A DNA stretch of 64,000 bases from Eledone cirrhosa. Taxonomy: Eukaryota. Every line of letters begins with the position of its first letter. Position 1 is the stretch's first letter. The notes under the pieces are model-generated. The model did no database searches. It was not told the DNA's origin and saw nothing but the letters and a program-made list of their open reading frames with translations. Both the position numbers and the translations under genes were made by a program. The stretch spans positions 46,190,001 through 46,254,000 of the forward strand of contig OZ024751.1 of NCBI GenBank assembly GCA_964016885.1, given 5' to 3'. This document shows positions 15,269 to 41,300 of the stretch, in pieces.

Positions 15269-15455
15269 ATAGGAAAAGGTATGACCCCGACGGCAGAGCG
15301 CAAGCTGTTTCAACAGCTATTTTTGGACTAGTCGAAATGGCTTGAGTTCTGCCGTCGGGGTCATACTTTTTCCTATTACCCACTCTACTACCCTAAATAT
15401 TGAGTACTCTGGTGCGTTATGGTCCATCTGGTTCCTTACCACATCTCCTTCGTTA
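15269..15455. mobile_element. Palindromic mini-insertion of PLE family A in (TA)n
   Basis: Both arms match the 3' end of the element at 19522-21668. Short arm ends ttcctat; long arm has an extra ~80-nt tail. Confidence 0.88.
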
Positions 15456-15893
15456 TATATATATAGATGTGTGTATATGTATATGCATACATATATATAT
15501 ATATTTCATTTCATTTCATTTCATTTTACATCCGCTTTTTCCCTGCTTGCAAGGGTGGGACGGGAACTGATTCTGGCTTGATTTCTACAGCCGGATGCCC
15601 TTCCTAACACCAACCTCATTTACAGTGAGTACTGGGTGCTTTTTTGCCGTGGCACCTCCACGACCACTTTGCAGTGGAATGATAGGGACCCCAGTCCCTA
15701 TCATCTCATTTCTACAGCTGAGTAAACTGGAGCAATGTGAAATAAAGTGTCTTGCTCAAGGAAACAACACATCACCTGGTCCGAGGATCGAACTCACAAC
15801 CTTTCAATTGCAAGGCCAATGCTCTAACCACTAAGCTATATACCTTCATATATATATACATATATATATGTATATATATATATATATATATAT

Positions 15894-15996
15894 ATATTAT
15901 TACATTGAGATTGACCATACGGAATTGACCAGCTCTATCCAGAGCTCTATCATAGAGCTGGTCAATTCCGTATGGTCAATCTCAATGTAATAATAT
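15894..15996. repeat. Perfect ~53-bp-arm palindrome abutting (TA)n
   Basis: atattattacattgagattgaccatacggaattgaccagctctat followed by its reverse complement. Confidence 0.9.
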
Positions 15997-16066
15997 GGAG
16001 AGTACTCAACGTAAAGCAGTTTAACCATCTTTGTTTTTGTAGTTGGTGGTGCGAGTACGGAGTTAA

Positions 16067-16380
16067 ATATTATAATGAAATGACAGGAGGCTGGACTTGT
16101 GTAAATCCTTGAAAGGTTTATTATACTATGATCATTTCAATGACCGGGTTCCGTATGAATCCGGTGATATCATCAGGTATTCGAAATGCTGGATGGTGGT
16201 CGTCCTCGGGTCTTTGATTTTCAGCCCCATGGATTTTATCTATTACATTCACTTATTATATTTCGAATACCTGATGATATCACCGGATTCATACGGAACC
16301 CGGTCATTGAAATGATCATAGAATAATAAACCTTTCAAGGATTTACACAAGTCCAGCCTCCTGTCATTTCATTATAATAT
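16067..16380. mobile_element. Inverted pair of PLE-type 3' ends (~120-bp arms), each carrying a hammerhead
   Basis: Arms 16067-16187 / 16260-16380. CTGATGA (16271)..accgg/ccggt..GAAA tgatca TA on +, with the mirror copy at 16123-16180 on -. Confidence 0.85.
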
Positions 16381-16589
16381 ATCTATATATATACAGTATT
16401 TTCCGTAGTGTTGTAATATAAATATTACACACAGTAGATGGACAGATCACCTAGAGTTTGCTCGACGGTTCCAGTTGTAGTTCCAAAATATATATATATG
16501 TATATGTATATATATGTATATACATGTATATATATATAGGAAAGTGCTAAGTCTACATATAGACATAGCACTTTCCTATCATGTTACCT

Positions 16590-16659
16590 TATTTTATCTG
16601 ATGAGAACACAATTTTTGTCCCAGGATGATTTTGTATTCAAAATGCGCATAATAAAATA
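16590..16659 (+). ncRNA. Hammerhead motif, GAAA mutated to AAAA
   Basis: tattttat CTGATGA gaacacaa..ttgtattc AAAA tgcgca TA ataaaata; sister of the intact copy at 38948-39014. Confidence 0.7.
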
Positions 16660-37847: not shown

Positions 37848-37914
37848 ATGGTTTCTATACAACTTTTCCTTGCAGCTTTCATCCAACTTCTCGCCATTTA
37901 CGTCTCTGCTGAAG
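37848..37914 (+). CDS. bsg: Basigin/neuroplastin-like gene, exon 1 (signal peptide MVSIQLFLAAFIQLLAIYVSAE)
   Basis: atcATGg start context, hydrophobic leader, AG|GTAAGT donor, phase 1 matching the next exon. Confidence 0.8.
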
Positions 37915-38908
37915 GTAAGTTTAATTAATTAATTCTTACAAACATATACAATGTGAATTAAATATATATGCCTTCTATTTGGTTCATCTCCCATTGCTCT
38001 CCGGGGATTTAAGCTTGTTGCTTTGCCTGTATGGTTATTTTTAGAAAAACAGCCAAGCAAAAGCACTTTAATGTTACTTTCTGCTTTTGATTTATCTACC
38101 TGTCTATCTATAACCAATATCTATATATATATATATATGTATATAAATTCGGTTTCATTTTGACTTTTACAAACGTTCTTTCAGTTTGTTCCTTGAAGGG
38201 AGTTTTCACGTGGTCATTCAAACCTGTTAGAAATAGTGAAAATATTCTTTAAATCACACCCACTACTGCCTGTCTTTAGTAAGAAAACTGGATTAGATAA
38301 TGTAATCGTCCTTGACATACCCTTAAAAAGACTGTGTGGTCACGGTTGGGACACCTTTGATTATTTATATACCAGCTCTGCTATCAAAAACATCGGCCCT
38401 TTTCCTTTCAGTTCGTTTTGTTTTGTTCTTCTTCCAGTGATTCTTTACCTATATATTAATGTTGTTATATCGATCACCCGGCTGTTAATCTATCTATCTA
38501 TATATACGCTTACATGCATACATACACAGGCCCTGAACATACATATATGGCGTTTCATTCCTTCGTGGACGATAAAGTCAAGGTATTATTACTAAGGTTG
38601 ATGTAATCAGCTGGTTCCCTCCCACCGAATCTGTGTCTTTGGATACCCAAACAAGAGAAAATGTTTTGAATGCATGTTGAGTTTATTTATTTGTTCCAAG
38701 TTGATAATTCACTGAGTTTCTTACTGTATCGTACATCTTATTGTCGTCGGAAGCACCGCACGTTGCGACAGTGGAATAATGACGGACTGAAGGTTCAGCT
38801 TAGAACGAATACACACACACACGTATACACAATCATACACACCACACACGCGTACACATACACGCATAGTCATATATATATATATATATATATATATATA
38901 TATATATA

Positions 38909-39162
38909 TAATATAAGATCAAAAGATGGTTAAAGGAGTTCCATGTATTTTATTATGCGCATTTCAAAAACAAACATCATCATGCAATAATATTTGTGTT
39001 TTCATCAGATAAAACAGGAACTCATCAGATAATACATGGAACTCCTTTAACCATCTTTTGATCTTATATTATGTATACTCCAGTCCTACAAACTGTAGAG
39101 TGCTTCTTATCCGATATCTGCATTGCTTTATTGTACTACAATAAAACTCACCTCCTACACTA
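38909..39162. mobile_element. Asymmetric palindromic PLE-type insertion (second family) with intact hammerhead on - (38948-39014)
   Basis: Arms 38909-38949 / 39031-39071; right arm extended ~90 nt to (TA)n. ttttat CTGATGA..GAAA tgcgca TA ataaaa on -. Confidence 0.82.
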
Positions 39163-39601
39163 TATATATATATATATATATATATGTATATATACCACAA
39201 CATTACATATTGCCTAGCGTTAGATGTGTAAGAACTCGATGTAATTACCAGATATAGTTATTGATTGTAATAAAGAGACATTATAATATTTTATCAGGTC
39301 ACTATCAATTATATATTTTACTTTTGGAGCAGAGAATTTCAAAAATTACAACTACATAGTTTTATGTTGCCGATCCTCATTTAAATGTTTACATGATATT
39401 ACCTTGCTAGAGGTGGAGTTTTCGTTTAGGTTCCTATATATATATATATATATATATATACACATGATAATGCAAGAATATAAACACACACACACATATA
39501 TATATATATAATATAAAGGTTTACATATACTGTATACTGAGGAAACGGTATATATTTATCGAATAATTCTAAGGACATGATTTATGATATATATATATAT
39601 A

Positions 39602-39791
39602 TAACGAAGGAAATGTGGTAAGGAACCAGGTGGACCATAACGCACCAAAGTACTCAATACTTAGGGTAGTAGAGTGGGTAATAGGAACGAGTAGGACCCC
39701 GACGGCTGAGCTCAAGCCGTTTCTACGGCTAATTCAGAATTAGCCGTCGAAACGGCTTGAGCTCAGCCGTCGGGGTCCTACTCGTTCCTAT
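39602..39791. mobile_element. Palindromic mini-insertion of PLE family A
   Basis: Long tailed arm on the left, short arm ending ttcctat on the right; centre ~39735. Confidence 0.88.
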
Positions 39792-41104
39792 ATATATATA
39801 TATATATATATATATATATATAATGTGTGTGTTTATATTCTTGCATCATCATGTGTATATATATATATATATTTGTTTTACTCTTGCTCTCTCTCTCTAC
39901 ATATATAGCAAGAGTAAAACATATATCACTATTTGTATGTAGAGAGCTATATTGGTGAGTATATGATTGCTAAAGTTTTATACAAAGCTCAATCTGTTTA
40001 TGTAGTGGAAGGAATGAGAAATATTTTTATGGTAAAAGATACAGAAAGACATGTAAACACAGAGCATATCCAACCATATAAAACGATAGAATAAAGTTAT
40101 ATATATATATATAATCTGCTTGTTTAACCCCCATTCGGCCCTGATACAGCAAAACTATGACCTGGGGCAACTCAGCTGTGACGATCTTATCGTTTTTCCC
40201 CCAGGAATTGTATCGTTTACCTTGGGTTACACACTTCAGTGTGTTCTGTTTTTCAAAGATGATAGTGGTTTAAAAAATAAAATATTTCTTGCAGTTGAAT
40301 GACCACATAGAGGTCTTCCCTGCTGTCATGTTAATCAAGGCGACCTATGATAAGAAACATTCCAGGTATAACTATCCCGGCATTTCTCCAATACCCAGTG
40401 TATCCAAAGCGGTTTTATCTAATGTCTTGAGATTTTTTAAAATTTCGTGATGAGAAGGTACAATAATGAGTGTCTCTACCTAGTCGTTCAATCTGTTAGA
40501 AATAACTGCCAAATCTCCCACAGATCACACACTATCTTTCCCGACAGAAAAAAACGACACATTGGACAATGTAGTCGTAGGTAGATACTCAGAAAAAGGA
40601 TAGTCACGGCCAGTTAATAGTGTAGATCATTGATCATAAGTGTCTGCCTGTTCCTTTCTACCGTAATGTTTAGATCTCACTTCAATCAACACTCACATTT
40701 CTACTGCTACCATTTACCACACTGCCATCATTGCTCTTTGCTGATCGTATTTACACTATACCATATTAGTTAATACTCTTTTTGTCGGCTCTGTGTGTAT
40801 ATGTTCACTCACAGATGTTTCTTCGTGTCTGTATATATGTGTTTGTGTAAAGAGAGAAAGTGAGTGTGTAGTGTGTGCGCGCGTGCATGCGAGTGGTAAT
40901 ATTTTTTTTTTTTACTCAGAGAATGTGCCTATGACGTTTCTGTGTATACACATGAGTGTGTTGTACATCTGTATCTGTGCGTATGTATACTACGTATTCT
41001 TGTATGTGTGTGTTTGGATGACGAGTGTAAGTGTGTGTGTGTGTATATATTATATATATATATATATATATATATATATATATATATATATATATATATA
41101 TATA

Positions 41105-41300
41105 TAACAAAGGAATTGTGGTAAGGAACCAGATGGACCATAACGCACCAGAGTACTCAATACTTAGGGTAGTAGAGTGGAAAATAGGAAAAAGTATGAC
41201 CCCGACGGCAGAACTCAAGCCGTTTCGACGGCTATTTCTGGACTAGAAATAGCCGTCTAAACGGCTTGAGCTCCGCCGTCGGGGTCATACTTTTTCCTAT
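41105..41300. mobile_element. Palindromic mini-insertion of PLE family A
   Basis: Same architecture; centre ~41243; (TA)n flanks. Confidence 0.88.

Follow-up and report, generated by a model that had tools for sequence, protein, structure and literature searches.

Head-to-head insertions of a Penelope-like element in (TA)n tracts of Eledone cirrhosa suggest that both strands of the target are primed, from two fixed sites on the RNA

A 64,000-nucleotide stretch of the Eledone cirrhosa genome (assembly GCA_964016885.1, contig OZ024751.1, positions 46,190,001 to 46,254,000; hereafter the window) carries five insertions of one Penelope-like element (PLE), each made of two 3' ends joined head-to-head between (TA)n tracts. 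They are arms of a young, recently active element that has left about 59,500 arms in the genome. In their probable mode of formation, the endonuclease (EN) of the element cut a (TA)n tract on both strands, and each free end was extended by a reverse transcriptase (RT) from one of two fixed sites 80 nt apart, likely on one RNA. This mechanism is a well-supported genomic extension of a published in vitro result (PMC11167929), to which two testable points are added, namely that each strand uses one site and that the class of template sets the arm length. How PLEs complete their integration, and why they have inverted arms with one tail, are stated as open questions in the available parts of PMC8557442 and PMC11167929.

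Arm positions are numbered from the predicted hammerhead cut, the end of the S arm being at +20 and that of the L arm at +100. A preliminary description of the window, made from the letters alone, had reported the five insertions, and all of them were found where it had placed them, with ends off by at most 1 nt once the shared TAT is counted (the spans in Table 1 include this terminal TAT, which is common to insert and target). Each consists of one S and one L arm. In all five copies the S arm ends in TTCC followed by TAT and TA repeats, 20 nt beyond the predicted cut, in agreement with the common halting point described before. The L arm ends in CGT followed by TAT and TA repeats, 80 nt past the S end. 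The tail of about 65 to 80 nt that had been assigned to this arm is present, but its true length is 80 nt; the value of 65 reflects a 13-nt deletion between two TCCTT repeats in the 35.8-kb copy, whose tail still ends at the normal L site. The L and S arms of the 19.5-kb copy overlap by 2 nt, and this copy alone has the complete hammerhead motif, the four short ones having its 3' half only. The five copies fall into four subfamilies. Variants that had been regarded as private to a copy proved to be subfamily markers, as among 376 distinct arms the octamer of the 39.6-kb copy is found in 45 and that of the 35.8-kb copy in 14.

The genome (3.0 Gb, 1796 contigs) was searched with an exact 25-letter core pattern, which gave 59,499 matches, against none for the reversed control. 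Such a count is far beyond chance. Of these matches, 26,352 run on into TATATAT (S ends) and 23,055 into the tail, while the remaining 10,092 conform to neither of these exact patterns. Among arms sampled from the first 22 Mb of contig C1, 88 of 122 S arms read exactly TTCC followed by TATATATA, and 60 of 97 L arms exactly TCGT followed by TATATATAT, the remainder being mostly single-base variants at the same place. At both start sites the template has TAT, which matches the TA primer or target, and two further TATs of the tail (+42 and +62) are not main ends. The fold across the tail region was no more stable than that of shuffled sequences (z 0.5), and we therefore propose no structure at the start sites.

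The two kinds of end occur together. On C1, 186 listed matches (100 S arms and the 86 of 100 L arms lying in the same range, the 14 L arms beyond it being left out) were paired within 6 kb. Among these, 48 of 50 head-to-head pairs were S+L, where 50% would be expected (p ~1e-12), and 86 matches had no listed partner. The fetched loci gave 127 S+L pairs out of 128, with 108 arms left unpaired by the script. Compact pairs were S+L in 153 of 158 cases; the five exceptions comprise a true L+L, a clean S+S and three cases in which the tail is shortened. When 219 arms of a C1 sample were classified, 168 had a partner of the opposite type, 21 were long, 1 was unclassified and 29 were partnerless, at least 4 of them through script misses. 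The S+L layout is constant across insertion sizes from 190 bp to 16 kb.

The lengths of the arms indicate how the two are related. Twenty-two S arms are paired with an L arm that stops before -25, in several cases inside the tail. Because an L cDNA that falls short of the S site cannot template the S arm, and the S cDNA has no tail, S and L arms are taken to be independent cDNAs. Either arm may be the longer: S in 8 and L in 14 of the 22 long pairs, which were all that a greedy parser resolved (the remaining pairs were redone by BLAST), and S in 32 and L in 39, with 10 equal, in a rough tally of 81 pairs from a second parser. This second junction parser over-extended arm ends (a false -48 class), and its exception list and flank test were retained. 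Centre junctions show small overlaps or short insertions. The commonest centre spacing is 76 (29 of 158 compact pairs), and there, by inspection, several centre sequences fit one annealing register of two 3' ends. Taken together, it is very likely that both target strands are primed. The earlier proposal of two strands primed at two fixed sites of the same RNA is well supported as to strands and sites, both by the pair counts and by tail-truncated L arms with complete S partners; that the RNA is the same is supported but unproven. At one centre junction (L102 and L425, C1:91489100-91492700) a 55-bp segment of the open reading frame (ORF) is repeated in tandem about 65 times, which suggests repeated slippage during joining or later satellite growth.

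In pairs with a common subfamily octamer on each arm, the octamers agree in 100 of 105 cases (19% expected). Of the five pairs that disagree, four do so by a single base, and the fifth (L012) is a true chimera. For 13 of 20 long pairs, none of the other arms in a set of 9-40 came as close as the arm's own partner. Where both arms carry the EN, 4 of 16 pairs have 5' ends no more than 35 nt apart (shuffle mean 0.56, p 0.0016), as if both enzymes ran to the same RNA end. At locus L256 (L083 is the same place) the two orientations share an internal deletion join that is in no other insertion compared. ADAR-type marks, as possible barcodes of a single RNA, were not seen, with 0 of 1465 alignments hyperedited. 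The comparisons of partner arms support a shared source copy for the arms of a pair, and probably a shared molecule. The earlier claim of a single template is supported for the source copy and probably for the molecule, but is not proven; L012 is a clear chimera.

We consider it probable that both arms were copied from one RNA molecule. Alternatively, each reverse transcriptase may have used its own RNA, both transcribed from one source copy. This would accommodate the slight differences between arms (0-13 per pair) and the chimera L012, and it would dispense with the strand displacement that two overlapping cDNAs on a single RNA require; a cell expressing one locus would likewise yield subfamily agreement. 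It leaves unexplained why the two RNAs always use different sites, why arm-length classes are coupled (0/35, below) and why 5' ends are nearly equal in 4 of 16 pairs, and we regard it as unlikely.

Short arms have a preferred boundary, as 236 of 280 end at -33 to -47, with a mode at -41. Fifty EN-bearing loci were classified (35 with a partner, 11 with none, 3 unclear and 1 misparsed); none of the 35 long-arm partners ends in this interval. Internal unit boundaries are crossed by 21 arms, of which none stops there. Both results favour two classes of template over a stall at a fixed structure. What we take to be a TATA-like box lies 29-30 nt upstream of -41, and -41 itself falls within TTAGT, which we presume to be initiator (Inr)-like. 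The base before -41, where the template has T, is genome-wide G in 5050 cases, A in 827, C in 4275 and T in 16,029. When the first 30 loci were taken from each set, the base could not be traced to the partner in 15 cases for G, 21 for A and 6 for C, which scales genome-wide to about 2500 G, 580 A and 850 C. A similar untemplated 5' G in full-length L1 and SVA was interpreted as a copied cap (PMC4859970). On balance we lean slightly towards -41 being the start of a capped RNA. A reverse transcriptase stalling at hammerhead stem II, with no RNA end at all, would fit the position of -41 within the 3' strand of the predicted stem, and no full-length copy beginning at -41 was found. Such a stall appears improbable, given that the same sequence stopped none of the 21 arms at internal unit boundaries and none of the 35 long-arm partners, and that the inserted G is in excess. 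In L121, L227, L212, L060 and L321, T runs (A on the other strand) occur at centre junctions just upstream of -41, possibly through slippage on UUU at the RNA 5' end.

Another possibility is that one cDNA folded back and copied itself, or that self-priming took place on an antisense transcript (PMC3846280), the asymmetry of the tail being produced as the EN trimmed one arm (PMC8557442). A sequential process of this kind would give the one-tail rule naturally, snap-back insertions are present at some junctions, and the S site holds ATT, the cleavage motif of PAc, a Poseidon element of Anolis (PMC11167929). However, S arms far outrun their L partners (16,063 vs 184 nt), which a copy of the L cDNA could not do, and the S cDNA has no tail to copy. 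The TAT match to the target is identical at both ends, and the class of truncated L arms with complete S partners largely refutes folding back for this Hydra-clade family. We therefore give it little credence.

The hairpins of about 190 bp could also be seen as a self-propagating non-autonomous family, similar to miniature inverted-repeat transposable elements (MITEs), in view of their very high copy number and of junctions that recur, such as the spacing of 76. However, centre junctions differ between copies of one subfamily and recurrent ones span several subfamilies, as expected from repeated de novo formation. The stubs lack the upstream promoter-like box and half of the hammerhead, and no stub clade with one rare junction and derived variants was evident by eye in the junction list. 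This explanation is very improbable; the hairpins of the preliminary description are real but are dead-end products, each with its own centre junction, and form no element family.

Near-perfect palindromes within repeats might reflect assembly fold-back, but the arms are asymmetric and carry independent mutations, their flanks differ, and in raw Illumina reads of other samples the S and L ends recur at the same places, with strand switches at -45 to -35, which refutes an artefact at the family level and leaves it a negligible probability. Reads from two other samples (same or close species) exit into TA repeats at +20 (3181 and 2772) and at +100 (8198 and 11,517), and almost none pass +100. 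These read sets are restriction-site-associated DNA (RAD) libraries, apparently enriched for restriction sites made by the junctions, so the depths at +20 and +100 are not copy ratios. Among the reads and contigs listed, none spans a whole window copy with both unique flanks.

The proposed sequence of events is as follows. The endonuclease would cut both strands of the (TA)n tract, and the ATA-3' primer of each strand may pair with UAU at its own start site. Two reverse transcriptases would then extend the two free ends from the fixed internal RNA sites. The 3' ends of the two cDNAs would become joined at short microhomologies, or with a few bases inserted between them, and each cDNA would serve as template for the other, giving the palindrome. 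The 190-bp stubs would reflect a capped transcript whose 5' end, at -41, lies within the hammerhead; priming close to this end would let the two cDNAs run off after about 60 and 140 nt. Long insertions would come from templates that reach further upstream, such as multimeric or circular RNA. A possible way to square this with the lack of copies of unit length plus 41 nt (below) is that a terminal pseudo-long terminal repeat (pLTR) followed by TA repeats may be unusable, since PAc requires RNA downstream of its start sites (PMC11167929, as available in part), and ordinary transcripts would then be left with the 5'-proximal site.

Several observations weigh against this mechanism. The start sites of PAc are neither strand-specific nor homologous to the primer, according to the available part of PMC11167929. 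Pairing has exceptions, namely an L+L (L278), a clean S+S (L353), a further S+S (L217) and the three shortened tails, and the 11 of 50 EN-bearing loci without a visible partner mean that two-strand priming is not universal. The chimera L012 mixes subfamilies, and partner arms are not identical, with a mean difference of 0.38%. The G estimate comes from 30 loci per base, and 13 of the 30 G cases could derive from the partner; reverse transcriptases can also add C on reaching the end of an uncapped template. The TATA-like box, which overlaps stem II of the hammerhead and is less pronounced in older subfamilies, is weak evidence. Finally, no copy of unit length plus 41 nt was seen among the arms examined, though a simple transcript from promoter to 3' end predicts one.

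Both four-unit arrays (L091-L093, C1:437198000-437214500; L101-L102, C1:91473000-91489000) that were examined show variants alternating as ABAB; the first does so at a single site (C,T,C,T), the second at four. This pattern, seen in two arrays, would be expected from a two-unit circular template, but also if a block of two units had been duplicated later or the assembly were wrong. A more far-reaching scheme can be offered tentatively, and we think it rather doubtful as a whole. A putative RT-EN dimer would lock one RNA at the two UAU sites, and every complete insertion would be an obligate two-strand priming event; capped pLTR transcripts would give dead 190-bp hairpins and circular or multimeric RNA the long copies, ABAB being the trace of rolling-circle copying on a two-unit circle. 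If true, this would be a general integration mechanism of EN+ PLEs, distinct from the target-primed reverse transcription of long interspersed nuclear elements (LINEs). The two-strand model itself is directly testable in the existing in vitro format. The insertions are a natural record, both large and young, from which exact predictions follow as to the start sites, the primer match of 3 nt, the use of a single site by each strand and the RNA start at -41, and the family also has intact protein copies.

The full parent element, whose reconstruction the preliminary description had proposed, was recovered from a natural array as a 3531-bp tandem unit with a 716-aa ORF from the first ATG, encoding intact RT and GIY-YIG. 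The ORF has the motifs YRDD, RWR (for RWK), SDKTG, CNCPDRSIC, CNLC and CKH, has its EN at the C-terminus and lacks CCHH; the GIY-YIG motif VIYQC...AYIGLT at the C-terminus is assigned at motif level. All 150 scored genome matches to the 133-aa GIY-YIG frame of the 19.5-kb copy were 100% identical, many of them in 784-residue open frames. A model of the parent protein (117 sequences, pLDDT 93.6) had TERT 3du5 as its best fold match (E 1.8e-8). Homologues at E 1e-20 numbered 2213 of 7998 scored candidates, and the 120 matches listed were 39-54% identical, none with an informative name. Pfam and PDB sequence searches with the element protein gave no match. Next to one of the arrays, on the minus strand of L093 at about 700-3070, there is a 787-residue frame of another Penelope-type RT with a C-terminal GIY-YIG.

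The 3' end of the element is predicted to fold as a type I hammerhead, a three-way structure with an unpaired UUGANAA core (UUGAGAA; position 7 varies among subfamilies), which corresponds to the U3-A8 hammerhead variant of PMC4209133. Rfam found no hammerhead at gathering score in the window and none at E 10 on the 3' end. The arm ends gave no trace of hammerhead cleavage, as 1 of 61 short L arms ended within 2 nt of the cut, in a sample biased to arms or partners with the core. A telomerase-like RT, GIY-YIG in the same ORF and a hammerhead motif in the pLTR, together with partial tandems (pLTR), an inverted arm and a tail, are features of EN+ PLEs, and the present element has all of them. 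The RWK-type motif, DKT, CxCX5C linker, CxxC, CxH, absence of CCHH, C-terminal EN and (TA)n targets are the marks of the Hydra clade as defined in section 11 of PMC8557442, a source available in part. On these sequence features the parent is classified as a Hydra-clade, C-terminal EN+ PLE. A place in the Naiad clade, which the preliminary description had mentioned for its targeting of microsatellites, is ruled out, as Naiad elements have an N-terminal EN, DKA and no canonical hammerhead, and here the EN is C-terminal and DKT and a hammerhead are present. Non-LTR retrozymes, with short head-to-tail units that each contain a full hammerhead, were likewise ruled out, the stubs being head-to-head with half a hammerhead. 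An element of the Hydra clade, which was described from few families, can thus rank among the commonest repeats of a 3-Gb genome, and its stubs are easily misfiled as MITEs or short interspersed nuclear elements (SINEs).

In the twin priming of L1, attributed to Ostertag and Kazazian (2001), two target strands are said to prime on one RNA and the cDNAs to join by microhomology; the second primer reportedly anneals internally at a position that varies, without overlap between the cDNAs. In the Eledone element, by contrast, both sites are fixed and the overlapping cDNAs make a palindrome.

Among PLEs, a close parallel in mechanism is PAc in vitro (2024), where, in the available part of PMC11167929, the two internal RNA sites at which RT starts bound the genomic tail, cutting and extension take place on each DNA strand, targets are AT-rich and hammerhead cleavage is dispensable. 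The core idea of the preliminary description, two internal start sites bounding the tail with both strands cut and extended, was therefore already in print. The start sites of PAc are non-homologous to the primer, whereas here a 3-nt match is found at both and the tail is 80 nt; that part of the paper reports no difference in start sites between strands and does not describe one site per strand or palindrome formation. A literature search that covered PMC11167929 in part found no published statement of a strict one-site-per-strand rule, nor of primer-matched UAU start sites, stubs as run-off to a capped start or arm-length coupling. The architecture of inverted arms with a tail is already published for EN+ PLEs. 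In the available parts of PMC3846280, PMC8557442 and PMC8969392 these elements have head-to-head inverted arms, a tail at one end and partial tandems, and the tail, of 30-40 bp, is called 'optional' and attributed to antisense self-priming or to EN resolution. The present element differs in that about 97% of its compact pairs have a tail on one arm and none on the other, and in that many copies cannot have arisen by fold-back.

The Hydra clade, including Hydra-1_Obim, shares with the Eledone element RW(R/K), DKT, CxCX5C, CxxC, CxH, the absence of CCHH, a 3' hammerhead and (TA)n targets, the last being a known property of the clade (PMC8557442, as available in part). The printed protein of Hydra-1_Obim, compared by eye, is clearly similar to the parent ORF in its N-terminus and RT. 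The Eledone element nevertheless represents a distinct family. In contrast to the Hydra families of that paper, which are generally below 3 kb, its unit has 3531 bp. Its hammerhead also differs from that of the clade by a U3-A8 core and a long stem II, and it has a pLTR, whereas Hydra-1_Obim is listed without one in the supplement of PMC8557442. The features of the window are given in Table 1.

Table 1. Features of the five head-to-head insertions (positions in the window)
Feature	Position	Strand	Remarks
Compact S+L insertion, older subfamily	15269..15456	S arm -, L arm +	S arm to -41, L arm to -26
Long insertion, whole	19521-21668		L arm 19521..20019 (-), S arm 20018..21668 (+)
L arm of 19.5-kb insertion	19521..20019	-	80-nt tail, hammerhead, ~400 nt of 3' untranslated region
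S arm of 19.5-kb insertion	20018..21668	+	5'-truncated copy, EN domain to S end
GIY-YIG endonuclease frame, intact, C-terminal, Hydra type	20021..20425	+	VIYQC...YIGLT, CNLC, CKH; 133 aa
Predicted type I hammerhead, U3-A8 core, palindromic loop III	21560..21653	+	predicted cut after 21648; folded on equivalent stretch
Presumed TATA-like box and Inr-like TTAGT	21578..21614	+	putative RNA start (-41) at ~21608
Compact S+L insertion	35796..35985	.	both arms to -41, one extra base between; 13-nt tail deletion
Compact L+S insertion	39601..39791	.	arms meet near -35/-36
Compact L+S insertion	41104..41300	.

The flanks of the 39.6-kb copy (39453-39500 and 39820-39863) form an inverted repeat of about 35 nt. 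As a part of the mechanism, inverted duplication of flanks was not convincing, being found at 6 of 149 insertions and at 38 of 1991 control TA tracts. Close to the 19.5-kb insertion, on either side (19368-19410 and 21780-21830), there are short remnants that resemble hammerheads and derive from the ends of other Penelope-type elements. A second hammerhead-bearing family, with the canonical CUGAUGA core, is present at 15894-16384, where inverted arms lie in (TA)n and one has a tail of about 150 nt; this copy has an additional small palindrome at its left end. Of the anchored arms of this family, 22 enter the tail and 18 do not, 17 of the latter ending in TA repeats. A third palindrome of asymmetric form, likewise flanked by TA tracts, is found at 38908-39161; its tail has about 85 nt, and it contains a small internal duplication. 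The window also contains a 72-bp satellite at 53271-56769 (about 47 copies, 96% matches) and a 31-bp satellite at 57772-58895 (36 copies).

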